A DNA stretch of 64,000 nt from Ignavibacteria bacterium (GCA_049293015.1 JBATSB010000010.1:2117-66116), one strand, 5' to 3'; positions 8,182-51,003 are shown, numbered from the stretch's first letter. Program-made: numbers and translations. Notes: generated by a model from the letters alone, not told the origin.

Positions 8182-9132
8182 ATGCTGAATACCAGATCAC
8201 TAATCGTAACATTAGTTTTACTTTTCTTTTTTGCCGGAAATACTTACTCTCAAAATAATACTTATGATTTTCTTAGATTAAATGTAGGAGCACGTGCTTC
8301 TGCACTTGGGGGAAGTTTTGTCACAAATACCAATGATGTAAATGGTTTGTTCTATAATCCTGCATCTCTTTCGACAATTACGACTTCGCAGGCTTCCATA
8401 GGTTTTTATAAATATTTACTGGATATTAATTCCGGTAATCTTGCCTATGGACAGAAATTCAAAGACAAGGGTTATTTCGGAGGTACTGTAAAGTATTTTA
8501 ATTATGGCAGCTTTACTAAAAAAGACATTTCAGCAAATGATCTCGGGACTTTTAATGCAAATGACCTGGCGATTTCTTTGGGATACTCCAATGCTTTTCA
8601 GGAAAATTTTTATTACGGTGCTAACCTGAAGTTTATATATTCACAAATCGATGAATTCAATTCAACTGCAATAGCTGTAGATTTGGGTATGCTCTATATA
8701 ATTCCTTCCACTATGTGGAATTTTGGTATTAGCTTATTAAATGCCGGTACACAAATGAGTCAGTATGACAATACAAAAGAAGATCTTCCTCTCGATCTGA
8801 GAGTCGGTGTAAGTAAAAGACTCGAGCATCTGCCGGTAAGGATCAATTTTGAATTCAGTGATCTAACTCAGAGTGGTGAATCTTTTTGGGAAAATTTTAA
8901 GAACTTATCTGTCGGCGGTGAATTTGATTTTAGCGAGAACGTAAAATTCCGTATCGGATATGACAATGCTCAGAGACAGGATCTTAAGACAGGAAGTTCG
9001 ATCGGTATAGCAGGATTTTCTACAGGAATTGGATTTAATTTCCTTGAGAATTATTCTTTTGATTATGCTTTTAGTTCGATGGGAAATGTCGGAACGAATA
9101 ACAGGATAGATGTGGGATTTAAATTGAAATAA
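8182..9132 (+). CDS. porQ: T9SS outer-membrane beta-barrel, PorV/PorQ family (PorQ-like)
   Basis: 316 aa with a signal peptide. The YDFLRLNVGARASALGGSFV...NPASL N-terminal motif and the alternating beta-strand pattern ending ...DVGFKLK resemble PorQ. Five T9SS cargo genes lie in the same window. Confidence 0.55.
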   Translation: MLNTRSLIVTLVLLFFFAGNTYSQNNTYDFLRLNVGARASALGGSFVTNTNDVNGLFYNPASLSTITTSQASIGFYKYLLDINSGNLAYGQKFKDKGYFGGTVKYFNYGSFTKKDISANDLGTFNANDLAISLGYSNAFQENFYYGANLKFIYSQIDEFNSTAIAVDLGMLYIIPSTMWNFGISLLNAGTQMSQYDNTKEDLPLDLRVGVSKRLEHLPVRINFEFSDLTQSGESFWENFKNLSVGGEFDFSENVKFRIGYDNAQRQDLKTGSSIGIAGFSTGIGFNFLENYSFDYAFSSMGNVGTNNRIDVGFKLK

Positions 9133-9552: not shown

Positions 9553-11058
9553 TTATGCTGATTTTCTTATTGCAATTATTTTTTCCAACTTATTCATCAG
9601 CCACCTTTTGTAAAAGAATTCCTTATCATTGATTATTTTATCAAACAGGTTGGCTAAATCATAAAGATGATTGTTTTCGATTAGCAAAAATATTTGATTC
9701 AATCTTTTAAGGAATATTAACTTCATTTCTTTTTTCTCTTCTGATATAATCTTGTTCCTTCTAACATATAAATCATAACTTTTAATAATCTTTCCTGCTT
9801 CAAAATAATTACGATTCTCAAAATGTATTAATAGCTGGAGTTCGATGACATATTGCTTTAACTGATTATATGCAATTAAAGATTTGTTATAATGTGCCTG
9901 GAATTCATCCATTAATGATTGAGACTGCTTAATATTACCCTTAAAAAATTCCAGATAAGATTCAGAAAATATTTTCAGAATTTTTCGATATTCTTCTTTA
10001 AGACTAGAATTATACTTTTCAATAAAATCCGATGCCCATTCAATTTTTTCAATTTTTACTGAATGCATTAAAATACTTATATAAAGATCCGGAGAAAGAT
10101 ATTTATTTGTAGAGTTAATGTACAGCTTATTTCTCAGAATAAAATTATTGATCCTGAAAAGTTCATTATCAAAAAATAAAATATCATTATCCTTTTTTAA
10201 CTTTAGTATTATGAATGACATTTGTTTATGAAGATGATGAGATAGCTCATCATGTGTCATTTCTAATGAATGTCTTGAGAGTAATTTTAAATAATGTTGA
10301 AAGTTCTTTACCGATATTTTTACTTCTAAAAGATCGAGATATGAATTCAGCAAATATTTATATAACAACAAATAATCATCTTTTGAGCCTTTATCCGAAA
10401 AGGAATCAGCAAGAAAAAGAATAATATCATACACTGGTTTTCTCTTAATCTCAATATTATAATTTGAGTATAATGTGAAAAGATTTGTAAAATGAGTGAT
10501 CATTCGGAAATAGTAATTTGAAAATTCGATGTGCATTAATTTATTTATTTCCGTGTCAATCTTTTCCAATGATCTTTTGGTTTTTATTTTCTTACATGAA
10601 ATTAGGTAATTAATTTTTTGTATTTGAATTTCCGACTCATCATGCAGATATTCCGGATCAAATTTTTTATTACTCGCGGTATGATTATTTATGCAGCCAT
10701 AACTTAATTCATCCAATCCTCTTTCAGCAAGAGCTGAAATCAACATACAGCCATTGTTTCTTCTCTGAAAATATTTTAATTCAACAAACTTTTCCAATAG
10801 AAGATTTAAGTCCGATAAAATGCTTCGGATAGTATTATCGTTAAAAACTTTTTCTCCGTAGAGTGCAGAATAAATATTTTTCTTGGTAAAATCTTTGTCA
10901 TTAAAGTCCGGACAATACTTTACTATCTCCGTGAAAAGCTCTAAGAGTTTTTTATTTTGATTATGATAAGGCGAACATATAAACAAAGAAAATTCCTTCA
11001 GCTCTACTTTAGTTAGGGTTTGAATAATTTTTATTGTAGGATAATTTGTCAGTCTCAT
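9553..11058 (-). CDS. Hypothetical all-helical (repeat/TPR-like) protein
   Basis: 501 aa from the ATG at 11058; the ORF track begins 4 codons earlier at a TTG. It is K/N/I/L/E/F-rich, with no TM segment, P-loop or catalytic motif recognised. It is divergent from the secreted-protein cluster. Confidence 0.5.
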   Translation of the reverse strand: MRLTNYPTIKIIQTLTKVELKEFSLFICSPYHNQNKKLLELFTEIVKYCPDFNDKDFTKKNIYSALYGEKVFNDNTIRSILSDLNLLLEKFVELKYFQRRNNGCMLISALAERGLDELSYGCINNHTASNKKFDPEYLHDESEIQIQKINYLISCKKIKTKRSLEKIDTEINKLMHIEFSNYYFRMITHFTNLFTLYSNYNIEIKRKPVYDIILFLADSFSDKGSKDDYLLLYKYLLNSYLDLLEVKISVKNFQHYLKLLSRHSLEMTHDELSHHLHKQMSFIILKLKKDNDILFFDNELFRINNFILRNKLYINSTNKYLSPDLYISILMHSVKIEKIEWASDFIEKYNSSLKEEYRKILKIFSESYLEFFKGNIKQSQSLMDEFQAHYNKSLIAYNQLKQYVIELQLLIHFENRNYFEAGKIIKSYDLYVRRNKIISEEKKEMKLIFLKRLNQIFLLIENNHLYDLANLFDKIINDKEFFYKRWLMNKLEKIIAIRKSA

Positions 11059-11224
11059 ATCAAAATACAAATATTGTTTATAATATAGTTGAAATTAATA
11101 AAAAAATTTAATAAAAATAAACCAAATTATAATTACCTTCAAAATTTTTCATATCAGTTTTTCAATTCTGTAGTTTACAACTCTCATCCATTCTCATGAA
11201 ATTAGTAGTAAAAGAAAATCAGTT

Positions 11225-11419
11225 ATGAAAAAAATATTACTACTAACATTAATAATTCTGTTTACTTGCGTCCAAAACATTTCATCTGAAAATATTCTTT
11301 CACGGATAACTTATGACGAATGCACTTATGAAGAAATTATCTGCGATGAAAGCGGATGCACGAAATACATTTATTACTGTGACGGACGGCTTAAACAAGT
11401 AATCCCGGATTGGGATTAA
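11225..11419 (+). CDS. Small secreted Cys-rich protein (64 aa)
   Basis: A signal-like N-terminus MKKILLLTLIILFTCVQNISS is followed by 43 aa with four Cys (CTYEEIICDESGCTKYIYYC). No homologue recognised. Confidence 0.4.
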   Translation: MKKILLLTLIILFTCVQNISSENILSRITYDECTYEEIICDESGCTKYIYYCDGRLKQVIPDWD

Positions 11420-11456
11420 CCGGAAATATAGCTCCAAAAAAATTTAATATATCAAG

Positions 11457-11487
11457 AAAGGAGTAAATGATGATAAGACCACCGTAA
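11457..11487 (+). promoter_or_regulatory. Candidate leader-peptide uORF, copy 1: AAAGGAG + ATG ATG ATA AGA CCA CCG TAA (MMIRPP-stop)
   Basis: A strong SD-like AAGGAG lies 3-6 nt before tandem ATGs, and the ORF has 6 sense codons. The block is conserved at 13977-14006 with only synonymous differences. It lies 70 nt upstream of the CDS at 11558. Confidence 0.55.
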
Positions 11488-11557
11488 GAATTATTAAATA
11501 TTTTGATCAATTCAATTTTAATTAACAGTTTTAAACACTAATTTAAACTAAAAAAAA

Positions 11558-11932
11558 ATGTATAAAAAACTATTTATCCCGGCAATATTTATTATTGCAA
11601 TATTTTCTGCTCTTGTAATTAACAACAATATTTTTTCAAATACTCAATCTAATCCAGCTCCAACATTTCAAGTTACTGTTTACCAAACTGGTGGTTCTAC
11701 TATACAAGCCAATGCAGAAGTTATAGTTGAAAATTCTAATGGTAATACTGTCAAATCTGGGACCACTAATTCATCCGGAATAGTCAGTTGGAGTTGGGAT
11801 CAACCTTATGGAAATTATACTGTAAAGGCATGGTATCCAACTCGGCCACTTGATGGACAATCAGCCCAAAACACAGTAAATTACTCAGGATCAAGTATTT
11901 ATACTTCTGTTACATTAGGTCCAAATTATTAA
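11558..11932 (+). CDS. Small secreted single-domain beta-sandwich protein (CarboxypepD_reg/PEGA-like), C-terminus TLGPNY
   Basis: 124 aa with an N-terminal hydrophobic signal or anchor. The pattern ...[11 protein letters not shown]...[10 protein letters not shown] is typical of carboxypeptidase-regulatory-like folds. It is a paralogue of 14084..14452, sharing YPxxPLDGQSA and the terminal TLGPNY. Confidence 0.6.
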
Positions 11933-11944
11933 ATTTCAAATCAG

Positions 11945-11970
11945 GCAGGGAATTTTTTATTCCCTGCTTT
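11945..11970 (+). terminator. Intercistronic hairpin / possible attenuator (GCAGGGAAT-TTTTT-ATTCCCTGC + TTT)
   Basis: A 9-bp perfect stem lies 13 nt after the stop of 11558..11932 and 13 nt before the ATG of 11983. The structural counterpart is at 14463-14492. Confidence 0.55.
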
Positions 11971-11982
11971 AAAATATTTCTC

Positions 11983-13701
11983 ATGAAAAAAAAAATCTTT
12001 TTATTAATATTTATTCAATTTGTACTTGCACAAATTACCTTTACTCAAACTCCTATGTATTATCAAAATTACCCATTAGAATTAGATGGTAACAGGGAAC
12101 CGTTTCGTAAAGCAGGCATTCCGCTTATAACAGATTTAGATAAAGATGGACAAAAAGAAATAATAACATTTGCTGTAGACTATTATGAATTAATTAATCC
12201 ACCTTGTATGCTTCATATAGTAAGAAGTGATGGCTCTTCTTATCCAAACTTTCCTAAAGGATATAATGAATTAATTTTAGATATTGCTTCCGGAGATGTT
12301 AATAATGATGGTTTTTTAGATATTGCTATAAGGTTTACTCATTCCTTTGATGTTATCGATAGATTCGGAAATCATCTTTCTGGATTTCCGGTAAATTATA
12401 GTGATGGTGATATTAATCCAACGAATTTTATAAGTTTATATGATTTAGATAATGACAATAAACTTGAAATTATTGTAAATAGGGCAGGAGATATTTCAGT
12501 CTATAATTTTGATGGTACTTTGCGAAGTGGTTGGCCAAGATTAATATCCGGAAGAGCTACCTATAATCCTGCTATTGGAGATATTGATAATGATGGTTTT
12601 GCAGAAATTGTTTTAAGCTCTTTCAAATTCACAAACAACATTGTTGATTCCGGAGCTGTGCATGTCTTTAGACATAATGGTTTAGAGTTTTCAAATAATT
12701 TTCCAATATATTTTGATTCTACATATTTCTCTTGGAGTTCCTCTCCATCACTTTTTATAAATAAAAATAATTCTGATTCAACGTTTTTCCTTGTTCCTTT
12801 GGATAAAAACAGTTCATCCTCAGATAGACTTCATAAGTTTCTAAAAATAGATATAAATGGAAAAATATTAGAAAAAAAATATTATGTTGAAACAATGGAT
12901 TTTGGTACTTTGGTTATGGGAGATTTAAATATTGATGGTAAATTAGACTTTTCAACCGGATCACAATTTGGAACTTCTTTATCTGCCTTCGACAACACTC
13001 TTAAAAGAATTGAAGGTTGGCCTTCTTCAGGAAATGGTGAACATTATGCAACTTCTGTCATAGCTAAAATTTCAAATTCCAGTTCAATGAATATTATAAG
13101 TAATTCATGGTCTGCAGAGTCAGTTAGTGGAAATGGTTATATTTATGCCTACACTAGCAATGGTGTTATTTTACCATGGTCTCCATTAAGACCTTATGGA
13201 TTGGTTAAGGGTATTTCAGTTTCAGATTTAAATAATGATGGTTCTGTAGAACTAATAGCAACAGCAACACAACAAAGAAAATTTTATCTTCACGTTTGGA
13301 CTATTCCTGGAATTCAGTTTGCAAATGAGAATTTCCCCTGGCCTCAATACGGTCACGACAGATATCGTACAAATCAATACGGCTTTATTCCTCCTGATGA
13401 ACCTGTTGGAATACTCCCAATAAGCAGCAATGTACCGGATAAGTTTTCCCTCTACCAAAACTTTCCAAATCCTTTTAATCCAACTACAAATATTAAATTT
13501 GATTTAATAAATTCCGGTAACGTAACATTAAAAATTTACGATGCATTAGGAAGGGAAATTTCTACTCTTGTAAATGAAAGACTAAACATCGGGACTTATC
13601 AGATAGTATTTGACGGAAGTAATTTTACTAGCGGGATTTATTTTTATAGTCTGGAGACAGAGAGTTTTAGAGAGACAAAGAAGTTTATTTTGTTGAAGTA
13701 A
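11983..13701 (+). CDS. FG-GAP/VCBS-repeat beta-propeller protein with T9SS C-terminal sorting domain
   Basis: 572 aa with a signal peptide. Repeated Dx[DN]xDGxxE/D[IL] calcium-loop-like motifs are present ([66 protein letters not shown]). The tail reads [17 protein letters not shown] then [17 protein letters not shown]...GIYFY...KKFILLK. Confidence 0.8.
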
Positions 13702-13749
13702 AGTCCTAAAGTTTAAATATTCAGTAAATTTTATAAATGTTTTTTTAAA

Positions 13750-13808
13750 GGCGTTGGTGGATAAAGCAACCAACGCCGACTGGAATTTTGAAACACCGAC
13801 AACGGCTA
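13750..13808. repeat. Hairpin GGCGTTGGT...ACCAACGCC plus TTTTGAAACACCGACAACGGCT end-motif (long-hairpin family relative)
   Basis: Read directly. The end-motif matches 9459-9480. Confidence 0.55.
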
Positions 13809-13976
13809 AATAAGCGACAGAAATTTTTAAAAATATAAGGAATTTAACGCAAATTCAAACATTATCGCATATTTCAATAATATTTTTATATCCGGATAAC
13901 CGTCAAATCAAAAAAAGTGTCCCTAACATGAATAAATAATTTCTCCTAAATTGTATTTAACTTAAAAATAAAACAT

Positions 13977-14006
13977 AAGGAGTAAATGATGATCAGACCA
14001 CCATAA
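13977..14006 (+). promoter_or_regulatory. Candidate leader-peptide uORF, copy 2: AAGGAG + ATG ATG ATC AGA CCA CCA TAA (MMIRPP-stop)
   Basis: Same block as 11457-11487. The differences ATA>ATC and CCG>CCA are both synonymous. It lies 77 nt upstream of the ATG at 14084. Confidence 0.55.
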
Positions 14007-14083
14007 GGAAATTGAAAAAAAGTAAACAAATAAGTATTTATTTATCAATTAAAAAATTAATTTCAGAAAGGAAAAAAATCTAT

Positions 14084-14452
14084 ATGAAAAAATTCAAAGT
14101 AATAGCAGCAATAGTGTTAATTGCAGTAGCAGGATTCTTTGCAACTCAGATAATTTCATCAGATGCAAATGCAGATCCGAATCCACTTCCCCACTTTAAT
14201 ATCAAAGTATTACAATATTCCACTTCATATCCTGTGGAAAATGCTCAGGTCAAGTATTTGACAGGAGGAAATAATGTTTATACAGGTACCACTGATGCAA
14301 ATGGATGGTGTTATACAACTTTGGCAACAGGAACATATAATGTATATGTATATTACCCTGCTCAACCATTGGATGGACAGTCAGCAAATTTGCTAAATTA
14401 TAATCATGATGGAAATGATGATGAAACTTTAACCTTAGGACCAAATTATTAA
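14084..14452 (+). CDS. Small secreted beta-sandwich protein, paralogue of 11558..11932, C-terminus TLGPNY
   Basis: 122 aa from the ATG at 14084 (MKKFKVIAAIVLIAVAGFFA signal or anchor). The ORF-track start at 14012 adds 24 K/I/S-rich residues upstream of the signal peptide and overlaps the leader, so I reject it. Confidence 0.6.
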   Translation: MKKFKVIAAIVLIAVAGFFATQIISSDANADPNPLPHFNIKVLQYSTSYPVENAQVKYLTGGNNVYTGTTDANGWCYTTLATGTYNVYVYYPAQPLDGQSANLLNYNHDGNDDETLTLGPNY

Positions 14453-14462
14453 TTTTAAAAAC

Positions 14463-14492
14463 AGGCAGGCATATATTTTATGTCTGCCTTTA
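14463..14492 (+). terminator. Intercistronic hairpin / possible attenuator (AGGCAGGCAT-loop-ATGTCTGCCT + TTT)
   Basis: A 10-bp stem whose only non-Watson-Crick position is a G-T, which would be a G-U wobble in plus-strand RNA. It occupies the same position as 11945-11970 and shares the 5' CAGGCAGG. Confidence 0.55.
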
Positions 14493-14505
14493 TTAATTCA
14501 ATTTT

Positions 14506-16278
14506 ATGAAAATTATATTTGTAAATATTTTTTTGTTTTGTATAATTCATTCCGGCATTTCCCAAACTCCTGTTTATAAAACCGGATTTCCGATTGTTAT
14601 TGATTCTAACAGAAGTCCTTATCAAAAAGCAGGATTGCCTTTAATTACAGATTTCGAAAAAGACGGTCAAAAAGAAATAATCTTTTTTACAATAGATTAT
14701 TTTGGAATAACAAATCCAAATTATCTGTATGTAACTAATAATGACGGATCTAATTATCCAAATTTTCCTAAAGGATATAATGAACTTATATTAGATGTCA
14801 ATTCAGGAGATGTTGACGGGGATGGATTTCTTGATATTGTTTTAAGATTTTCATTTTCATTTGATGTTATAGACAGATTTGGGAATCACCTACCTGGTTT
14901 TCCTGTGAATTATAGTGATGGAGAATTTACTCCATTAAGACCAATAAATATTTATGATCTGGATAATGATGGAAAGCTTGAAATTATAGTATCAAAAAAA
15001 GGAGAACTTTCAGTATTTAATTATAATGGAACATTAAGACAAGGCTGGCCAAGATACATACCGGGTTCTACAAAAACAAATGCAGCTATCGGCGATATTG
15101 ATAATGACGGTATTGCAGAAATTATAGCTGCTACTGTAAGAAAAATTCCCACCGGCGGATCAGATTCATCAGCTTTAAGGATTTTCAGAGAAAACGGAGA
15201 AAATTTTTCTAATGAATGGCCGGTATATTCAGATTCACTTTATGAAAATTCGGGAGCCTCCCCGACTCTGATAATTAATAGAAATTTTACGGATTCAACA
15301 TATATTTTAATGTCAACTAAAAGAACAAATATTGGCGGTATCAGTAATAACCGTCTTACAAAATTTAATATTTATGGTCAGATTATTGACAGAGGATATG
15401 CAAATGTCTTAAATGGATTAGGAACTATTGTAATTGGAGATTTGGACAGAGATGGGAAACCCGAATATTCAAATGGAGCACAAGGCGATCCATATCTATT
15501 ATTATATTCAAATGAATTAGTTAAACTTTCAGGCTGGCCAAATGAAGGAGTTGGAGAACATTGGGCTACACCTTTAATTGGAAAATTAACGCATTCCAAT
15601 AATTTGAATGTTACAGATAACAACTGGTCAGCCTTTGCACCTAACGGATTTGGAAATGTCTTTGCTTATAATAAAGACGGTTCACCTTTACCCTGGTCTC
15701 CATTAAGACCGGAGGGAATAGTAGAAGGTATTGCTTTATCAGATATTGATAATAATGGATCAGTTGAATTAATTGCAACTTCTTCTAAAGGATACGAAAC
15801 CTATATAGATAAAAATGGATCAGTTGGTTTAACAACAACTTCTTCAAAAAGAATCGCAACCTATCTTCATATTTGGTCATTGGATGGAATTCCTTTTTCA
15901 CATGAAAATTTCCCATGGTCCATGTATGGTCACGACCGCTACAGAACTAATCAATACGGATTCATACCACCCGACGAACCCGTCGGCATTCTCCCAATAA
16001 GCAACAATGTACCGGATAAGTTTTCCCTCTATCAAAACTTTCCAAATCCATTTAATCCAACTACAAATATTAAATTTGATTTGATAAATTCAGGTAATGT
16101 AAGTTTAAAAATTTACGATGCATTAGGAAGAGAAATTTCTACTCTTGTAAATGAAAGGCTAAATATCGGAACATATCAGATAGTATTTGACGGAAATAAT
16201 TTTACCAGCGGAATTTATTTTTATAGTATTGAGACAGAGAATTTCAGAGAGACGAAGAAGTTTATTTTGTTGAAGTGA
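14506..16278 (+). CDS. FG-GAP/VCBS-repeat beta-propeller protein with T9SS C-terminal sorting domain (paralogue of 11983..13701)
   Basis: 590 aa with the same repeat motifs and tail. The last ~290 nt are about 92% identical to the paralogue. It contains a 60-nt in-frame tandem duplication at 15754-15873. Confidence 0.8.
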   Translation: MKIIFVNIFLFCIIHSGISQTPVYKTGFPIVIDSNRSPYQKAGLPLITDFEKDGQKEIIFFTIDYFGITNPNYLYVTNNDGSNYPNFPKGYNELILDVNSGDVDGDGFLDIVLRFSFSFDVIDRFGNHLPGFPVNYSDGEFTPLRPINIYDLDNDGKLEIIVSKKGELSVFNYNGTLRQGWPRYIPGSTKTNAAIGDIDNDGIAEIIAATVRKIPTGGSDSSALRIFRENGENFSNEWPVYSDSLYENSGASPTLIINRNFTDSTYILMSTKRTNIGGISNNRLTKFNIYGQIIDRGYANVLNGLGTIVIGDLDRDGKPEYSNGAQGDPYLLLYSNELVKLSGWPNEGVGEHWATPLIGKLTHSNNLNVTDNNWSAFAPNGFGNVFAYNKDGSPLPWSPLRPEGIVEGIALSDIDNNGSVELIATSSKGYETYIDKNGSVGLTTTSSKRIATYLHIWSLDGIPFSHENFPWSMYGHDRYRTNQYGFIPPDEPVGILPISNNVPDKFSLYQNFPNPFNPTTNIKFDLINSGNVSLKIYDALGREISTLVNERLNIGTYQIVFDGNNFTSGIYFYSIETENFRETKKFILLK

Positions 16279-16390
16279 TTTAATGAAGTTTGAATAGTTA
16301 GTAAAGTTTATTAAAGATTCATTAAGGTGATCAAGGAAATTACCACTGAAAATTTTTTGACCCTCATTAACAGATCAAATATTAGATTCT

Positions 16391-16425
16391 AAAAAAGCCG
16401 GACAATTACATTCTCCGGCTTTTTT
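16391..16425. terminator. Bidirectional terminator between convergent genes
   Basis: AAAAAAGCCGGACAATTACATTCTCCGGCTTTTTT has the stem AGCCGGA/TCCGGCT flanked by an A-tract and a T-tract. It lies between the stops at 16278 (+) and 16434 (-). Confidence 0.7.
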
Positions 16426-16433
16426 AAGTCAAA

Positions 16434-17720
16434 TTATCTTCCCTTCATTCTGTGAGAAACATTGATCCTGTTTTTTTTCAGATTGGCAACGATCTTATCG
16501 ACTTCAGGAATTGCATGATTAAAATATTTTTTCAAACCCCTGCAAAGATAGTTAAGTCCGGGCTCACCATCTGGCGTAAGTATGATCCTGTTCTTTGGAC
16601 ATTCACCGTAGCAATCAGTAAGGAATTCACACTTCATGCAATACTCAGGAAGATAATCAGATTTGGCAGTTCCGAATTTTGTCTGTGATTCTGAAAAAAC
16701 CATCTCAGCAAGATTATTTTCCATTACATTGCCAACCTTATATTCGGGATAAACATAATGGTCGCATGAATAAACACTTCCTTCATTTTCAACGGCAAGA
16801 CCCTTGCCGCAGAATCCGCTGTAGATGCAAACCTGAGATGGCATTCCGAGATGCTGAGCTACAAGAGTTTCTATATGGTTTACAAGAACTTTCCCAACAT
16901 CGCGGTTAAGCCATTCATCAAATACCTTTGAAAGAAAATATCCATAGTCATCAGGATCAACGGACCAATCGGTAACAATTGAATCAGGGTGATCCGGACG
17001 GGCTTCCGGAGATCCGTCTTTTGGAAGTTTTGAAACATCCCAGGTATGAGGAGCTGTTGTTTCAAAACCCTTATATTCTACGATCGGAATAAACTGAATA
17101 TAAGTCGAACCTATTTCACGTCTTAAGAATCTGTAAACATCAAGCGGACGTTTTGCATTTAAACGGTTGACACAAGTGAGTGTGTTGAATGGAACGCGGT
17201 ACTTTTTCAATAGCTTGATCCCATTCATGACAAGATCAAAAGTCGGTTTTCCGTTTTTAGTAATGCGGTAAGCATTATGTATATCGCGTGGACCATCTAT
17301 GCTGATACCGACAAGCCAGTTGTTTTCTTTAAGAAACTTACACCAGTCATCATCCAATAATATTCCATTCGTCTGAAGGTCATTTGATATTTTCTGACCG
17401 GGTTTGGAATACTTTTTCTGAAGCTCAGTTATTTTCTTAAAATAGTTCAAGCCAAGCATGGTTGGTTCTCCACCCTGCCATGAAAATACAATTTCATCAG
17501 CCGTGACGCCTTCAATATATTGACTGATAAAATTTTCAAGTACCTCATCAGTCATTTTCCCTTTTCCGGGACCATCGGGAAGATCTTCCTTGTCGAGATA
17601 GTAACAATATGTGCAGTCAATGTTGCAAGTCGAACCGCCGGGTTTTGCCATCACGTGAAATCTTCTTTGTGCCGGTTGTGTATGACTTTCTGATTGATTA
17701 TAGTTATTATCCAAATTCAT
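16434..17720 (-). CDS. Radical SAM/SPASM enzyme, anaerobic sulfatase-maturating enzyme (anSME/AslB/ChuR) family
   Basis: 428 aa. It has FHVMAKPGGSTCNIDCTYCYY (the CxxxCxxC cluster in the anSME-typical context), GGEPTM, and C-terminal Cys clusters including CMKCEFLTDCYGEC (SPASM). Confidence 0.8.
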   Translation of the reverse strand: MNLDNNYNQSESHTQPAQRRFHVMAKPGGSTCNIDCTYCYYLDKEDLPDGPGKGKMTDEVLENFISQYIEGVTADEIVFSWQGGEPTMLGLNYFKKITELQKKYSKPGQKISNDLQTNGILLDDDWCKFLKENNWLVGISIDGPRDIHNAYRITKNGKPTFDLVMNGIKLLKKYRVPFNTLTCVNRLNAKRPLDVYRFLRREIGSTYIQFIPIVEYKGFETTAPHTWDVSKLPKDGSPEARPDHPDSIVTDWSVDPDDYGYFLSKVFDEWLNRDVGKVLVNHIETLVAQHLGMPSQVCIYSGFCGKGLAVENEGSVYSCDHYVYPEYKVGNVMENNLAEMVFSESQTKFGTAKSDYLPEYCMKCEFLTDCYGECPKNRIILTPDGEPGLNYLCRGLKKYFNHAIPEVDKIVANLKKNRINVSHRMKGR

Positions 17721-18320: not shown

Positions 18321-20987
18321 TTGAAAAAATTATATTCTTTAATATTATTGATACTGTTTCTAAACACTGCTGCTTTTTCACAAAGTGAATGGTTTTTACA
18401 GTATGTCGGATCTCTGAAGTCAATAGATTTTATAAATATTAATACCGGTTGGGCTATTGGTTATCAGGGTATTGTTTTAAAAACTACAAATTCAGGAAAA
18501 AACTGGATAATTCAACCAAAAATAAATTCAGGTATGAAATCAGTTCAATTCCTGGACATGAATACCGGTATGATAGTTGGAATCAATACTAATGATAGTT
18601 TAATCTTAAAAACAACAAACGGGGGTATTAACTGGATTCCTCAATCAATTGAAAATAATAAAAATATAAGCGCTATTCATTTTACAGATTCTAATAATTG
18701 GTGGGCAACAATTGGAGATACAATTGTTAAAACTACTAATGGCGGAACCAACTGGATTAATATGCCATACGAAATGAATAACAGCAATTTCAAATCTGTT
18801 TTTTTTATAGATCAAAATACCGGTTGGATAGGGGGAGATAAATTCGATGATATAATACCCGAACCAATTATTCTCAAAACAACGAACGGAGGAACTAACT
18901 GGATTTATATTTATCCCTTCTATAGTGGTGTAGCAATAACTTATTTATATTTTACTGATATTAATACCGGATATGCTTTAGACTTCTATGGTTCGATTAC
19001 TAAATCAACTAACGGTGGAATCGGATGGGATTTTGGTATTAATTCGGATTTATTGGATGGAGAAATCCAATTTATAAACAACAATACGGGTTGGCTGACT
19101 AGTGAATATAGTTCATCAAACGGGAGCTCAATATTAAAAACAACAAACGGCGGAGCAAATTGGTCGTATTTAAATAACACTCCGGCAAGTAGATCTGCTT
19201 GTTTTGTTGATAGCTCATACGCCTGGATAGTAGACACTCAAGGCTATATTTACAGTACCTATAATAAAATGGATTCAAATGACGTAGGAGTGTTTAACAT
19301 TATAAATCCTATTGAGAATTCTGTTCATTATGCAAAATGTACAAATAATGATTCCATTATTCCTAATGTTTCAATAAAGAATTTTGGGCAAAAAGCTCAG
19401 AACAATTTCTTTGATGTTCATTTTGAAATAAAATTTGGTAACAATATTGTTTATCACAGCATTAAACAAGCTACTATTGATGCTTGGGAAACCAAAACAA
19501 TTAATTTCGATCCTTACATTTTAAATTTTGATTTGCAAGCATATAATAATGAAAAGTATAAAATTAATTCTTGGACAAGTTTGGTTACCGATACAAATCC
19601 TCTAAATGATACAGCAGAGTCAGCTTTTTCCGTTGTCAATCCTAATTACGCTTATTCAGATATAAGCGGATATTATTTCTTAAACTCTTCAATAAACGCA
19701 AATTGCATTCCGGATCAGCCTGTATACAATTGGGAAGATACTACAGGCAGTACAAGTCTTATTGTTAACGGACAGGCAGTTGTTCCATTCGCATATTACA
19801 ATAGTTATTACTTTAATGGATGCTTTAGATTGCCGGATGCTTTAACCGGAGGTGATAAATTTAAATTTTTTGGAACCTGCTATGATACAATATTAATTTC
19901 AACCAGCGGGGTAATAGGTTTTGGCGGTATCTCATTAGTTGAAATGAGTTATCCATTTTCTTCGTCAATACCATCTGTTACTGCTCCTCACCCTGCAATT
20001 TTCCCATTTTGGTATTTTACTAATTTCCAGGATCCGGAAATAATAGGCAGGAATTTGAAATACAAAGTCACTGATGACAAATTTATTGTTACCTATGACA
20101 GATTTCCATTATTTAATACACTTTATGATTCCAATGATTATGTTTCATATCAGGTAATTTTAGAAACAGGAATTGACGGCGGCACTGAAAACGGAAATAT
20201 TACTGTTCAGTTTGATAATTCAAAAAGCGGTTCGTTATTCCTGAACAATTATTACAATGGAAATTTACATGAAATGACAATCGGCATACAAAACTCAACA
20301 GGAACAAAGGGTCTTCTTTACAGACGTTCTGAAGCAAATCACGTTGTTACAGTTCCCGGACCGCTGTTCGGTTCTCCCCTTGCAATAAGATTCGGACAAA
20401 TTAATGAACTTCTGCCTGTCGAACTTGAATCTTTTATATCTACTGTATCTGAGAATAATGTAATACTTAACTGGCGTGTAACTTCGGAAATTAATAATTC
20501 CGGATTTGATCTCGAACGGTCAAATGTTAAAGATCAGACGTCAGACTCATGGATAAAAATCGGCAACGTTGCAGGAAATGGTAACTCAAACAGTCCTGTA
20601 AGTTATACCTTTGAAGATAAGAATCTTACTTCCGGAAAATATAAATACCGGCTCAAGCAGATAGATTTTAACGGAAGCTTTGAATACTATGATTTGCAGA
20701 ATGAAGTTATAATAGGTATCCCGGGTAAATATAATCTTTCACAAAACTATCCGAATCCGTTTAATCCTTTAACTAAAATAAAATTTGAGATCCCGGTAGA
20801 TTCTAAGGTAGTATTAAAAATTTATGACAATACCGGCAGGGAGATGAAAACTCTTGTGAATGAATTTAAAACTGCCGGATATTACTCTTTTGATTTTAAC
20901 GGGACCAATCTCGCCAGCGGAGTTTATTTTTATAAATTACATACTGACGGATTCTCTGATACTAAGAGAATGATCTTACTTAAATAA
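18321..20987 (+). CDS. Large T9SS-secreted protein: N-terminal BNR/Ycf48-like beta-propeller repeats, central unknown region, VELxSF spacer, T9SS sorting domain
   Basis: 888 aa with a signal peptide. (L)KTTNGG(T/I/A)NW repeats recur about every 45-60 aa. The C-terminal ~190 aa are homologous to 3..1019 (LLPVELESF...NNSGFDLERS...SQNYPNPFNPLTKI...GVYFY). TTG start preceded by GAGGGA. Confidence 0.8.
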   Translation: MKKLYSLILLILFLNTAAFSQSEWFLQYVGSLKSIDFININTGWAIGYQGIVLKTTNSGKNWIIQPKINSGMKSVQFLDMNTGMIVGINTNDSLILKTTNGGINWIPQSIENNKNISAIHFTDSNNWWATIGDTIVKTTNGGTNWINMPYEMNNSNFKSVFFIDQNTGWIGGDKFDDIIPEPIILKTTNGGTNWIYIYPFYSGVAITYLYFTDINTGYALDFYGSITKSTNGGIGWDFGINSDLLDGEIQFINNNTGWLTSEYSSSNGSSILKTTNGGANWSYLNNTPASRSACFVDSSYAWIVDTQGYIYSTYNKMDSNDVGVFNIINPIENSVHYAKCTNNDSIIPNVSIKNFGQKAQNNFFDVHFEIKFGNNIVYHSIKQATIDAWETKTINFDPYILNFDLQAYNNEKYKINSWTSLVTDTNPLNDTAESAFSVVNPNYAYSDISGYYFLNSSINANCIPDQPVYNWEDTTGSTSLIVNGQAVVPFAYYNSYYFNGCFRLPDALTGGDKFKFFGTCYDTILISTSGVIGFGGISLVEMSYPFSSSIPSVTAPHPAIFPFWYFTNFQDPEIIGRNLKYKVTDDKFIVTYDRFPLFNTLYDSNDYVSYQVILETGIDGGTENGNITVQFDNSKSGSLFLNNYYNGNLHEMTIGIQNSTGTKGLLYRRSEANHVVTVPGPLFGSPLAIRFGQINELLPVELESFISTVSENNVILNWRVTSEINNSGFDLERSNVKDQTSDSWIKIGNVAGNGNSNSPVSYTFEDKNLTSGKYKYRLKQIDFNGSFEYYDLQNEVIIGIPGKYNLSQNYPNPFNPLTKIKFEIPVDSKVVLKIYDNTGREMKTLVNEFKTAGYYSFDFNGTNLASGVYFYKLHTDGFSDTKRMILLK

Positions 20988-21387: not shown

Positions 21388-21891
21388 ATGAAATCTGTTT
21401 TACTTTTAATTTTTTTGATCCTTATTAATACCAATATCTCACAGGCAGATGATGAAACGCCCGTGCAAAAATTCTCAAAAAACAGGATCAAACAACTTTC
21501 TGATGTTTATATTAATAACAATTTAAATATCCGAAATCCTGTAGTAGTAGACATTGATGAAGACGGTGATTTCGATATATTGAAATTTAATGATGAAGGA
21601 AAAGTAGAGTTTTACAATAATACCGGTAGTTTAGAAAAACCCGAGTTTGTTCTTCAAGATAAAAATTTTGATAATTATGAAATGAATACATTGTTCCCTG
21701 TTGGTATTCCTTTTCCGGTATTTCTTGCTGACAGAGATGGAGATATGGACAAAGATATTTTTGGAGTTGTAGAACGAAATAATCAAAACAAGATTGTATA
21801 TGCTGAAAATGCTTTTGATCTTGATCATTATACATTAGTTACTATCATACTTGTATTATTAATTATTATTTTAGTACTGGCAATAGTTTAG
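21388..21891 (+). CDS. Small FG-GAP-like protein with signal peptide and C-terminal TM anchor
   Basis: 167 aa with the motifs VVDIDEDGDFDIL and ADRDGDMDKDIF. The C-terminal hydrophobic segment is YTLVTIILVLLIIILVLAIV. Confidence 0.5.
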   Translation: MKSVLLLIFLILINTNISQADDETPVQKFSKNRIKQLSDVYINNNLNIRNPVVVDIDEDGDFDILKFNDEGKVEFYNNTGSLEKPEFVLQDKNFDNYEMNTLFPVGIPFPVFLADRDGDMDKDIFGVVERNNQNKIVYAENAFDLDHYTLVTIILVLLIIILVLAIV

Positions 21892-21897
21892 AATCTT

Positions 21898-21969
<72 letters not shown>

Positions 21970-21978
21970 CAGCCTTTC

Positions 21979-48864: not shown

Positions 48865-49935
48865 ATGAAAATTATTATAAATTTATTTATTCTGCTTCTA
48901 GTAAGTACCGGTCTGTATTCACAAAACGCATCGACTTACTTTCCGGCAAATACCGGTTATAAATGGTTTTATAAAAATACTCCTCTCGACTCTTTAAGTA
49001 ATCCAAATTATAACTTATCGACATATCAGGTCGATTCATTCGCAACCAATGTGAATTATAACGGACTGCCTGCATCACTGGTTTTATCACAATCGGGTCT
49101 GACAAATATTAATCAACAGGGATTGTTTACAGATTCAGTTTTTTATAATTTTCAGTCAACCAATGGTTTCTATTTTCTTAATCCTTTAAGTTTTATTAAT
49201 TCTATTCCTGTTTTTGATTCAGTTGCGTTTATTCAGTTTCTCAGATCGTTTGAAGGATGGTATAGTTATTACAGATTTGCGCAGACTGTAAATGTTCCTT
49301 ATACACTTTTCTCAAGAGATACAACTGTAACATTTGATTCTCTTACACTTCCGCTCAGAGTTTCTGCTACAGGAAGGAGACTTAATGATCAGACTATTTC
49401 AACTGTCAACGGAAATTATAATTGCAAAAAGTTTTTAATCACTTTTGGAATTAGTTATGGACTTCTTCCACCGCTTATTTATATTCCGATTGTCAGCATA
49501 CCCGATACAGTTTATATTGCTCAAAATGTCTGGATTGTAAAAGATATCATTCCATCTATTAGTGTTGATTTAAATACAATTGGGATTGATCTGGCATTTA
49601 CTATTCCGGGCAGTTTAAAAGAGCTTACTCAAAATACTATAGGTATATCCGGTCAAAATATTTTTAATCCGGAAAGTTTTTCTCTTGGTCAGAATTATCC
49701 AAATCCCTTTAATCCAAACACAGTTATCAATTACAATATTGTTAAATCAGATTTTATTTCTCTGAAAGTTTTTGACATACTCGGTAATGAAGTTGCTGTT
49801 CTTGTAAATGAAAAACAAAATGCGGGAAGTTATTCAGTGGAATTTGATGGAGCAAGTCTGCCTAGCGGGGTTTATTATTACAGACTCAGTTCAGGTGATT
49901 TTAATGATGTGAAAATGATGACGCTGATAAAATAA
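48865..49935 (+). CDS. T9SS-secreted protein of unknown function
   Basis: 356 aa with a signal peptide. The C-terminus reads LGQNYPNPFNPNTVINY...GVYYYRL...KMMTLIK. Confidence 0.75.
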   Translation: MKIIINLFILLLVSTGLYSQNASTYFPANTGYKWFYKNTPLDSLSNPNYNLSTYQVDSFATNVNYNGLPASLVLSQSGLTNINQQGLFTDSVFYNFQSTNGFYFLNPLSFINSIPVFDSVAFIQFLRSFEGWYSYYRFAQTVNVPYTLFSRDTTVTFDSLTLPLRVSATGRRLNDQTISTVNGNYNCKKFLITFGISYGLLPPLIYIPIVSIPDTVYIAQNVWIVKDIIPSISVDLNTIGIDLAFTIPGSLKELTQNTIGISGQNIFNPESFSLGQNYPNPFNPNTVINYNIVKSDFISLKVFDILGNEVAVLVNEKQNAGSYSVEFDGASLPSGVYYYRLSSGDFNDVKMMTLIK

Positions 49936-50157: not shown

Positions 50158-51003
50158 ATGAAATTCGGTAAAAAAATTACGATATTCTTAATAGACGGAG
50201 ATCCGAATGGTCGCTTAACTTGTGAACTTTCAAATTGGTCAGGTAAAGCTTATAAAATTCCGAGGATAAATATTAAAGACTGTACTGACAGAGATGACTT
50301 GAAAAGTACAGGAGTCTATTTGCTTTTCGGAAAAGACGATGACGGTAAAGATCAGGTTTATATCGGTGAAGCAGAATCAATTTTAAAACGACTAAATCAA
50401 CAATTGACTCAGAAAGAATTTTGGAAGGAAGCTATAGTATTCATTAGTAAAGATGAAAACCTAAATAAAGCTCATATTAAATATTTAGAAAATAGACTAC
50501 ACGAAATTGCTAAATCCGCAAATCGATATAAACTTGATAATTCAATAATTCCTACTCAGTCTTTAATTTCTGAATCTGACAGAGCAGAAATGGAGGAATT
50601 TATAGAGTATATAAAAATGCTCGTAAATACTTTAGGACATAAAGTGTTTGATGAAAAAAGAGAAGTTAAACCAAAACAAAAGCAAGATACGTTTTTCATA
50701 AAATCCGCTCGTGGAGCAGAGGGTCAAGGTGAACCGACTTCGGAAGGATTTGTTGTTTTTAAAGGGTCAAAAGCAGCGGCTACTATAGTAAATTCAATGA
50801 CTCCTAATTTTATTAGTTTAAGACAAAAATTAATTAATGAAGAAGTTCTTTTAGATAAAAGCGAATACTTGGAGTTTTCAGACGACTACATATTCAGTAG
50901 TCCATCAACAGCTGCAGCAATTGTTATGGGACGAAACGCAAACGGACTTACAGAATGGAAAAACAAAAATAGAAAAACTTTAAAGGAATATGAAGTGAAT
51001 TAA
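50158..51003 (+). CDS. GIY-YIG nuclease-family protein with C-terminal DUF4357 domain
   Basis: 281 aa. GVYLLFGKDDDGKDQVYIGEAESILKRL is GIY-YIG-like. The C-terminal FSSPSTAAAIVMGRNANGLTEWK fits the DUF4357 pattern. Confidence 0.65.
   Translation: MKFGKKITIFLIDGDPNGRLTCELSNWSGKAYKIPRINIKDCTDRDDLKSTGVYLLFGKDDDGKDQVYIGEAESILKRLNQQLTQKEFWKEAIVFISKDENLNKAHIKYLENRLHEIAKSANRYKLDNSIIPTQSLISESDRAEMEEFIEYIKMLVNTLGHKVFDEKREVKPKQKQDTFFIKSARGAEGQGEPTSEGFVVFKGSKAAATIVNSMTPNFISLRQKLINEEVLLDKSEYLEFSDDYIFSSPSTAAAIVMGRNANGLTEWKNKNRKTLKEYEVN

Follow-up and report, generated by a model that had tools for sequence, protein, structure and literature searches.

A tandemly amplified Ignavibacteria operon module pairing a small exported protein with a type IX secretion propeller behind a putative arrest-type leader

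A 64,000-nucleotide stretch of DNA from an Ignavibacteria bacterium (GCA_049293015.1 JBATSB010000010.1:2117-66116; hereafter the window) carries two tandem copies of a module on its plus strand (module 1, 11458-13701; module 2, 13977-16278). Both copies keep the same order of parts: a strong Shine-Dalgarno (SD) site with a mini-open reading frame (mini-ORF), a gene for a small exported protein, a hairpin with an 11-bp stem, and a gene for a large FG-GAP propeller protein destined for the type IX secretion system (T9SS). With moderate confidence, we interpret this arrangement as a lineage-specific, tandemly amplified operon module of Ignavibacteria, the products of which evolve as a unit and the expression of which would be set by two cis-acting RNA devices under a leader of the stalling type. 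An earlier reading of the window (the sequence-only reading) had proposed two tandem four-part modules, and all parts were recovered at their proposed positions in both copies. Its inventory of four parts was nevertheless incomplete, as a fifth, the gene for a tiny secreted protein at 11225-11419 ahead of leader 1, had been overlooked.

The module was compared with related loci (labelled L001 onwards), mostly Ignavibacteria contigs of metagenome-assembled genomes (MAGs), totalling 410 kb and scanned for leaders on both strands. No described system combines an arrest-type upstream open reading frame (uORF), a type-A cargo protein of the T9SS and a small protein of the CnaB type. The sequence-only reading had likewise not recognised a described system, and no match was obtained in Pfam, NCBIfam, PADLOC, Rfam or literature searches. 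The PADLOC models matched none of the small, large and tiny proteins, nor the 505-aa protein encoded nearby; a literature search combining Ignavibacteria, T9SS and FG-GAP gave nothing on the module, and one with the exact peptide strings gave nothing relevant. Rfam held no family for the leaders or hairpins, either at the gathering score over the whole window or at E <= 1 over 11050-16450, where the sole match was a sub-threshold Thr_leader on the final terminator.

The small protein, the propeller and their pairing

At every locus fetched, the gene after the small gene encoded a large-protein homologue. This included four divergent small proteins (28-43% identical), and in the reverse test propellers with 42-47% identity each had a small gene directly 5', with family-profile E-values of 6e-7 to 5e-11. 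The sequence-only reading had held that a small protein without a T9SS tail is always paired with a T9SS propeller, and a lack of co-localisation of the two across genomes had been set beforehand as the observation that could refute this; the homologues were adjacent throughout. That reading is partly supported: the pairing and the leader are real, and the two-component surface system which it suggested, perhaps an adhesin or receptor with a cognate partner or chaperone, is a possible function. The number of modules ranged from a single one in one species (L001-L006, L008 and L025), via two modules plus an extra propeller gene on the L007 contig, to long arrays in several MAGs, and contig JADJYU010000007.1 (L015, L010 and L013; one MAG) carried at least 12 modules in approximately 37 kb. 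Over 20 intact pairs, the identities of the small proteins and those of the propellers were correlated (r = 0.85, Mantel p = 5e-4), which indicates that the modules duplicate and diverge as units.

Small protein 1 (11558-11932, +; 124 aa) consists of a signal peptide and a seven-strand beta-sandwich of the CnaB/transthyretin-like kind, and has a 100% identical counterpart among NCBI MAG proteins, encoded on a 69-kb contig. Small protein 2 (14084-14452, +; 122 aa), which starts at the ATG at 14084 and not at the TTG at 14012 of the ORF list, also has a signal peptide and belongs to a second subtype (NIxV.QY...WCYTTLATGTYNVYVYYP). The two had been described as sharing little beyond two motifs; they do both end in TLGPNY, but their similarity runs from end to end, with 38% identity over the full length (E = 1e-17). 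Signal-peptide cleavage, here marked by a slash, is likely at ANA/D in small protein 2 and clear at VNA/QD and AFA/QD in relatives. The AlphaFold2 (AF2) model of small protein 1 had a mean predicted local distance difference test score (pLDDT) of 86, exceeding 94 for residues 35-124, and displayed a seven-strand, prealbumin-like sandwich. Its Foldseek neighbours were SdrD B, CnaB2 and pilin domains and transthyretin (E 5e-5 to 1e-3, probability 1.0, target-normalised template modelling (TM) score up to 0.75), and the family profile matched a collagen-adhesin chain of Bacillus anthracis at 6.6e-12.

The small protein thus resembles the CnaB, SdrD-B and transthyretin-like (CarboxypepD_reg) domains in being a seven-strand sandwich, and domains of the same type occur in up to 39 repeats within giant proteins. 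Unlike CnaB and SdrD-B, it is a stand-alone exported protein and not a repeat in a large adhesin, and no isopeptide triad (Lys, Asn/Asp, Glu/Asp) was conserved in the family alignments, which also contained no sortase or lipoprotein signal. It differs from CarboxypepD_reg (PF13620) in scoring below the Pfam cut-off (25.5 and 22.4 bits for the two small proteins; cut-off 32.3) and in having motifs of its own, namely a YPxRPxDGQ loop and an L-G-P-x-(Y/W)-COOH end. Invariant or nearly so are V41, T70, G74, G85, Y87, P97, D99, Q101, L120, G121 and Y124. The family is a modest set of stand-alone proteins of approximately 115-130 aa and is mostly specific to Ignavibacteria.

Large protein 1 (11983-13701, +; 572 aa) comprises a signal peptide, an FG-GAP propeller (residues ~25-445), a conserved linker and a T9SS type-A C-terminal domain (CTD; 494-569), as seen with Pfam, NCBIfam and AF2. 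Large protein 2 (14506-16278, +; 590 aa) has the same propeller and type-A CTD by Pfam and alignment, and the two are 58% identical. FG-GAP_3 scored 62.6 bits on large protein 1 and 73.0 bits on large protein 2 (cut-off 26.9), Por_Secre_tail (PF18962) 44.4 and 44.3 bits (cut-off 27), and TIGR04183 43.8 bits on large protein 1 (cut-off 23). The AF2 model of large protein 1 (pLDDT 89, predicted TM score 0.84) showed four-strand blades over residues ~30-445 and a C-terminal beta-sandwich at 501-570. The N-terminus is hydrophobic and forms a helix (2-19) in the model, so that both sequence and model point to a Sec signal peptide; with it and the type-A sorting domain, the protein has the hallmarks of T9SS type-A cargo. 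Top Foldseek matches were generic propellers, including PorZ and Vibrio cholerae Bap1 (PDB 6mlt; E = 8e-11). Bap1 is likewise a secreted propeller of the binding type, but the TM-score is only ~0.4, the beta-prism insert is missing and the secretion route is another one. Pfam, NCBIfam and Foldseek revealed no catalytic, toxin or known effector domain in the large protein.

A cognate partner encoded beside T9SS cargo has a precedent in SprB/SprF of gliding Bacteroidota. To our knowledge, the adjacent cargo partners known so far are outer-membrane barrels of the PorP/SprF kind, serving type-B cargo only. The small protein differs from these in being a soluble beta-sandwich of 95 residues, the gene of which lies 5' of type-A cargo.

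Two further features of the proteins were observed. The last ~275 nt of the large genes (13427-13701 and 16004-16278), which encode the T9SS CTD, share 91-94% DNA identity, compared to 55-70% elsewhere, a pattern suggesting that recent gene conversion homogenises the sorting domain between tandem copies. Moreover, the mature N-termini of the large and small proteins would expose a Gln (../QTP.. and ..A/QD..; e.g. residue 22 of large protein 1; P0130, P0140, P0146). This Gln22 is at least 90% conserved among 45 propellers and resembles the 'Q-rule' of Bacteroidetes, a rule which a passage of one report describes as not valid for the whole Fibrobacteres-Chlorobi-Bacteroidetes (FCB) group (PMC5837995).

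Leader, spacer and hairpin

A 31-nt island, AAGGAGTAAATGATGATMAGACCACCRTAAG, was found exactly twice in the 64 kb, at 11458-11488 and 13977-14007, where shuffled sequences lead one to expect none. It is the sole conserved block in the DNA upstream of the two copies, the rest of which cannot be aligned. In each copy, an SD motif AAGGAG (11458-11463 and 13977-13982, both +) is followed by a uORF encoding M-I-R-P-P-stop: ATG ATA AGA CCA CCG TAA at 11470-11487 (+) in leader 1 and ATG ATC AGA CCA CCA TAA at 13989-14006 (+) in leader 2. The island copies differ at two nucleotides, both synonymous. Leader 1 has an additional in-frame ATG at 11467, merely 3 nt from the SD, and the peptide had earlier been read as MMIRPP. 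Since homologues and SD spacing agree on the second ATG, with the SD 6-9 nt 5' of the start, the functional product was taken to be the five-residue MIRPP.

The position of the leader is highly specific. All 23 distinct SD+M-x-R-x-x-stop sites in the 410 kb lie 81-95 nt 5' of a small gene, and even among strong-SD mini-ORFs of any sequence, 29 of 39 are at that same position. The observed peptides are MIRPP (both window copies, L023 and L033), MKRPP, MIRPL, MIRSP, MIRST, MIRSL, MNRSP, MSRSP and MTRAP. All are five codons long and have Arg as their third residue; the fourth is S, P or A (TCN, CCN or GCN) and the fifth mostly Pro, with M-I-R-(P/S/A)-P-stop accounting for 13 of the 17 distinct leader variants. 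Sequence entropy within the uORF was 0.84 bits at codon position 3, compared to 0.46 at position 1 and 0.44 at position 2. MTRAP differs from the commonest variant, MIRSP (ATG ATT AGA TCA CCT TAG), at 6 of 18 nucleotides while retaining the pattern. Fixed length, an invariant Arg and variation biased towards the wobble position thus mark a translated ORF constrained at the level of its peptide. That the leader is a translated cis-regulatory uORF, a role read from its sequence, is well supported, and the dedicated leader peptide of the sequence-only reading is borne out both by its exclusive position and by third codon positions that vary about twice as much as the others.

The SD itself stands out as well. 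Of the window's 43 ordinary genes, no more than 4 are preceded by so much as a 4-mer SD motif (background 8%), no real gene start has a 6-mer, and apart from those of the two leaders, no intergenic start in the 64 kb has a strong SD. For the class Ignavibacteria, one survey gives ~32% SD-led genes (PMC10783764). The situation is similar to that of rpsU in Flavobacteriia, where an isolated strong SD occurs in an FCB genome whose ordinary genes lack SDs (PMC9976891, PMC13000453), except that the SD of the leader serves a mini-ORF and not a ribosomal protein gene. Such isolation in an SD-poor genome raises the possibility that a subset of ribosomes, or a particular ribosome state, reads the site. 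Pairing of the SD with an anti-SD mimic inside the island was considered and rejected, as inspection of the sequence showed it not to be conserved in the window copies. The uORF stops in the distinct variants are always TAA or TAG and never TGA, the codon which ends several small genes of the same arrays; this may hint at release-factor specificity, although the copies are related and the count is weak evidence.

The spacer between leader 1 and small gene 1 (11488-11557, +) is 70 nt long, ~86% A+T and unstructured. Across 18 distinct spacers, the distance from uORF stop to small-gene start was 63-94 nt, with 17 of them within 63-77 nt and an A+T content again of ~86%. Folding from leader to start was no better than that of shuffled sequences, with z-scores of +1.37 (11455-11575) and +0.97 in the window and a mean of +0.43 over the 18 spacers. 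A classical attenuator or SD-masking structure 3' of the uORF was rejected, there being no hairpin between uORF and gene in either the window or the 18 spacers. An attenuation leader of the trpL/hisL type was also discarded, since there is neither a codon run, nor a pair of terminator and antiterminator hairpins, nor an Rfam leader match; the same applies to a C-rich spacer for Rho loading (7.5% C compared to 6.4% G in the 18 spacers). An unstructured spacer without C-over-G bias argues against SD-masking and typical Rho-site models, and leaves mRNA protection or ribosome hand-over as plausible outputs. Hexamers resembling those of sigma-70 promoters were as frequent in the spacers as expected (31 seen, 31.0 expected) and variable in position, and no promoter is claimed there.

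A promoter- or operator-like element, CCGTCAAATC-N7-GTGTCCCTAACAT-N10-TTTCTCCTAA-ATTGTA, was located at 13900-13956 (+). It is conserved in L001 and L033, where a near-identical block precedes the tiny gene, and in the window ends ~20 nt 5' of the SD of leader 2. In module 2 it abuts the leader SD directly, as though the tiny gene had been deleted.

The second RNA element lies between the two protein genes. Hairpin 1 (11943-11969, +), an 11-bp stem with a 5-nt loop followed by TTTAAAATATTT, has a folding energy of -17.6 kcal/mol (z -4.2) and ends 13 nt 5' of large gene 1, and hairpin 2 (14463-14489, +) has an 11-bp stem followed by TTTATTAATT (-17.7 kcal/mol, z -4.9). A hairpin directly 3' of the small gene reached z <= -2 in 32 of 34 distinct modules, and a stem of at least 9 bp was present in all 34. 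The stems represent at least 10 unrelated sequences, structure being conserved and sequence not, and pseudogene fragments, which serve as internal controls, have no such hairpin. A terminator consensus scan flagged hairpin 2 and not hairpin 1, the T-run of which is interrupted. We infer from the sequences that the intercistronic hairpin acts as a leaky terminator or 3' stabiliser which makes the small protein exceed the propeller.

Natural variation within one species points to the uORF from another side. Eight contigs from different samples (L001-L006, L008 and L025) share at least 99.8% identity across 5 kb and differ at six sites, three of which fall inside the 18-nt uORF (L001 7890-7907), where chance would place ~0.02 of the six. 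All three are disruptive: start loss (ATG to ATA) in two contigs, Pro5 to Leu (P5L; CCA to CTA) in three, and stop loss through a 1-nt deletion in three. The remaining sites all lie in the 521-aa gene next to it and appear neutral, two being synonymous and the third causing I325L. Four uORF alleles hence exist in this species (wild type, P5L, start loss plus P5L, and stop loss), and start-loss (ATA) uORFs also occur in other arrays (L012, L013 and L016). The clustering of disruptive changes implies that the uORF has a phenotypic consequence and is repeatedly altered in nature, and the recurrence of P5L beside start and stop loss suggests that residue 5 matters.

Genes around the modules

The tiny gene ahead of leader 1 (11225-11419, +) encodes a Cys-rich protein of 64 aa with a signal peptide. 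Alignment with the tiny genes of L001, L033, L023, L015, L034 and L013 identified it as a divergent member of a family of ~65-88 aa with the motif YTYExVFxDGVWWIYVYDxDGxLVxxYP; in many modules, a member of this family lies 5' of the leader. The tiny genes of two other species have a strong SD of their own, AAAGGAGGAA (starts L001 7617 and L033 1458).

Divergently transcribed from the module is a gene for a protein of ~505 aa (9553-11070, -) without a known domain or signal peptide, for which Pfam (E <= 1), NCBIfam, PADLOC and PDB sequence searches returned nothing. Homologues adjoin modules in L001 (521 aa), L007 (497 aa), L013 (502 and 479 aa) and L042 (488 aa; 23% identity, E = 1e-22), and the gene is a candidate regulator or accessory gene.

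Large gene 1 is followed by a terminator-like hairpin, GGCGTTGGT...ACCAACGCC, at 13750-13777 (+; z -2.7 for the region 13700-13790). The array is closed by a bidirectional terminator, A6-GCCGGA...TCCGGC-T6, at 16391-16425 (z -3.4), shared with a convergent radical-SAM/SPASM gene (16434-17720, -). This gene encodes an anaerobic sulfatase maturase (TIGR03942, 493 bits; cut-off 349) and has no connection with the module. Its presence had raised the question of whether TLGPNY is a modified peptide core, a possibility which was rejected because the gene is a maturase equivalog, lies on the opposite strand and is missing from the other loci.

At 50158-51003 (+), between a gene for a 356-aa T9SS cargo protein and a Metallophos gene, the window encodes a 281-aa DUF4357 protein belonging to the PADLOC candidate defence family PDC-S14 (E = 2.6e-120). 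In a related species (L001 5856-10154), a whole module consisting of the 521-aa gene and the tiny, leader, small and large parts occupies exactly the slot of the PDC-S14 gene, which marks the slot as a variable-island position.

Several other genes relate to the T9SS. An outer-membrane barrel of 316 aa is encoded at 8182-9132 (+), ~400 nt from the 505-aa gene, and matches FadL/TodX (34.5 bits) and PorV (PF19572; 28.0 bits, cut-off 27); it is not found beside the module in other genomes, and is the only candidate for T9SS machinery, as opposed to cargo, in the window. Further T9SS-tailed proteins are encoded in the window (18321-20987, +, and 48865-49935, +), among them an 888-aa BNR/YCF48-like propeller, and in the divergent loci L040 and L042 a BNR-like gene of ~315 aa lies 3' of the FG-GAP gene. 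Propeller cargo of the T9SS seems to be abundant in the lineage. Finally, a 167-aa ORF at 21388-21891 (+), beside tRNA-Gly (21898-21970), scores 20.4 bits with FG-GAP_3, below the cut-off, and could belong to the propeller family, either as a fragment or as a short relative.

Mechanism, competing explanations and meaning

The closest known relatives of the leader are the RAPP-like arrest peptides (ApdA, ApdP, ApcA and SecM; RQH family) and the peptides ending in NSP- or NAP-stop (PMC10987492, PMC12992588, PMC10951233). Mutagenesis of the RAP(P) core has shown that Arg is irreplaceable, that Ala can be fully replaced by Gly and partly by Ser, Asp or Pro, and that Pro occupies the P site during arrest (PMC12992588). 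Stalling of Bacteroidota-specific uORF peptides ending in N-S-P-stop or N-A-P-stop occurs while the stop codon occupies the A site and requires residues -3 and -1, and RAP-stop is listed among ApcA-like uORFs in a survey of bacterial genomes (PMC10987492). The leader, R(-3)-[S/P/A](-2)-P(-1)-stop, fits this core exactly, its middle residue being drawn from the experimentally tolerated set, and similar to the RAPP-type uORFs it lies 5' of genes for exported proteins. It is unlike them in length, with 5 residues compared to about 50-150 and without a tunnel-contacting N-terminal part; in having no signal or membrane segment, so that it would not be a force-released 'monitoring substrate'; in the absence of an SD-masking stem-loop 3' of it; and in that the genes regulated are not Sec or YidC components.

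Two other kinds of leader invite comparison. TnaC of the tna operon has 24 residues, ends in R-P-stop, needs free tryptophan, and blocks termination, thereby hiding a Rho loading site. The leader shares with TnaC an Arg and a Pro ahead of the stop codon and an unstructured spacer before the structural gene, on which a ribosome stalled at that stop would act, but its spacer has no C-over-G bias and no ligand is implied. The STAB-SD of cryIIIA and the stalled-ribosome leader of ermC are 5'-end mRNA stabilisers of Firmicutes with RNase J. As in these, the real start is preceded by a strong SD, whether or not a short ORF goes with it, which could hold a ribosome and shield the message; unlike in these, the leader of module 1 comes after another gene.

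On these grounds, termination arrest is the best, although unproven, mechanism for the leader, as judged from sequence and from analogy. Ribosomes would load at the only strong SD of the region, translate M-I-R-(P/S/A)-P and pause at termination of the uORF, a pause proposed because arrest peptides of the RAPP-like and NSP/NAP-stop kinds have R-x-P-stop as their core. Once halted where the spacer begins, a stretch of ~70 nt that is unstructured, AU-rich and of fixed length, a ribosome could then set the use of the downstream message, the likely routes being protection of the mRNA and/or hand-over of ribosomes to the small gene, which lacks an SD, and not the melting of an SD-masking hairpin. 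The hairpin 3' of the small gene would end or stabilise most transcripts and so yield small protein in excess over the propeller. After Sec export, the small protein, having no T9SS tail, would meet the folded propeller in the periplasm and bind it as a cognate partner, with the invariant YPxRPxDGQ loop and the L-G-P-x-aromatic-COOH end as candidate contact surfaces. By means of its CTD, the propeller would pass through the T9SS and reach the cell surface, possibly with the partner still bound.

Several observations weigh against this interpretation. Unless a suitable N-terminal segment is present, most RAPP-like motifs in ordinary proteins are reported to cause no stalling (PMC10987492), and a five-residue leader peptide is too short to reach the constriction of the exit tunnel, stalling here being inferred from sequence. 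Some copies have Leu or Thr instead of Pro5. In distant family members, the place of the leader is taken by unrelated mini-ORFs with an SD (MKKAPT-stop, MS-stop and MGALR-stop), or by none, and translation of the mini-ORF may therefore outweigh its sequence; in the most divergent paired loci (L040-L042) the leader was not found, making it a feature of a clade. The spacers contain neither a structure nor a C-rich tract able to transmit a stall, and in module 1 the leader lies 3' of the tiny gene and thus not necessarily near a 5' end. The U-tracts following the intercistronic hairpins are interrupted, forming T-rich tails. As for the proteins, co-divergence is expected from co-duplication alone and is no proof of binding, and the most divergent small partners (L040-L042) lack the LGPxY end, TLGPNY being a trait of one clade.

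The main rival to an arrest peptide is a leader acting independently of its sequence, as a ribosome-loading or mRNA-stabilising element of the STAB-SD or bicistronic-design type, with R-x-P-stop as a mere habit of the clade; we regard this as a possible, if tentative, explanation. A strong SD with any very short ORF would recruit ribosomes, leading to transcript protection or to re-initiation at the small gene. The unrelated mini-ORFs that distant members keep at the same distance fit this well, as do the unstructured spacer of fixed length, suited to sliding and re-initiation, the lack of an SD at the small genes themselves, and a hypothesis, put forward in a passage of one publication, that leader genes raise expression via re-initiation (PMC4833913). 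It accounts less readily for the invariance of Arg3, the restriction of residue 4 to S, P or A and the prevalence of Pro at residue 5 while the wobble positions vary freely, or for P5L being among the recurrent natural alleles besides start and stop loss. That the 31-nt island is not translated at all, and is instead a binding site for a protein or RNA such as an operator or a mimic of the 16S tail, appears very improbable. Many copies of the uORF do contain GATCACCT, which we take to be identical to part of the 3' tail of 16S rRNA, and a conserved promoter-like element is nearby. The window copies (GACCACC), however, have no 16S-like string, complementarity between the SD and downstream sequence is not conserved, and no Rfam family matches. 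Both start and stop codons are preserved, as are the length of the frame and the distance to the SD, with variation biased to wobble positions.

For the two proteins, binding as cognate partners has to be weighed against two other roles. They might form a pair of effector and immunity protein or inhibitor, in which the T9SS propeller is antagonistic or harmful to the cell itself, the small periplasmic protein protects by being in excess, and the arrays reflect an arms race. Arrays of diverging cognate pairs would be expected in that case, the small partner does diverge slightly faster (mean identity 0.53, compared to 0.59 for the propeller), the hairpin architecture predicts an excess of small protein, and the module of the related species fills a variable slot that in the present genome holds a candidate defence gene. 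Such a role is nonetheless improbable, given a propeller without toxin, enzyme or known effector domain, a module without PADLOC match, and propeller copies that have no small gene (L007 and L016); moreover, FG-GAP propellers are typically binding modules. Slightly less credence still is given to the small protein as an independent, abundant structural or matrix protein, similar to a pilin or adhesin, which is merely co-regulated with the propeller and does not bind it directly. Its fold matches pilin and adhesin stalk domains, the same domain forms the long repeats of giant proteins, and a hairpin after the gene of a major subunit is a classic operon design, as in the pap and puf operons. The conserved Lys-Asn/Asp-Glu triad and any sortase or lipoprotein signal are missing, though, and near one-to-one adjacency with co-divergence is hard to explain through co-regulation alone.

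A bolder version of the arrest interpretation, which we put forward as doubtful, goes further. The pentapeptide M-I-R-x-P would be shorter than any other natural nascent-peptide arrest element known to date, with contacts in the peptidyl-transferase centre alone blocking termination. Led by a strong SD, a rarity in an FCB bacterium poor in such sites, and perhaps read by a special ribosome state, it would act as a tunable switch of a T9SS cargo-partner module, flipped repeatedly in natural populations by loss of the start, the Pro or the stop. The small partner, in turn, might leave the cell as a hitch-hiker, carried through the T9SS by the propeller with its tail.

Of all elements of the module, the leader with its series of natural alleles is of greatest interest and lends itself best to a direct test, for which the hot spot in the uORF supplies wild type, P5L, start loss and stop loss. 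If the pentapeptide stalls, an R-x-P core alone arrests termination, which would provide a minimal and easily tested model of arrest chemistry in the peptidyl-transferase centre. The conserved pairing adds a new set of two protein families to T9SS biology, a stand-alone CnaB-like partner and an FG-GAP cargo, present in about a dozen copies in some genomes. Stalling by the pentapeptide would also mean that T9SS cargo is under post-transcriptional control in a phylum that has received little study and in which ordinary genes seem to be without SDs.

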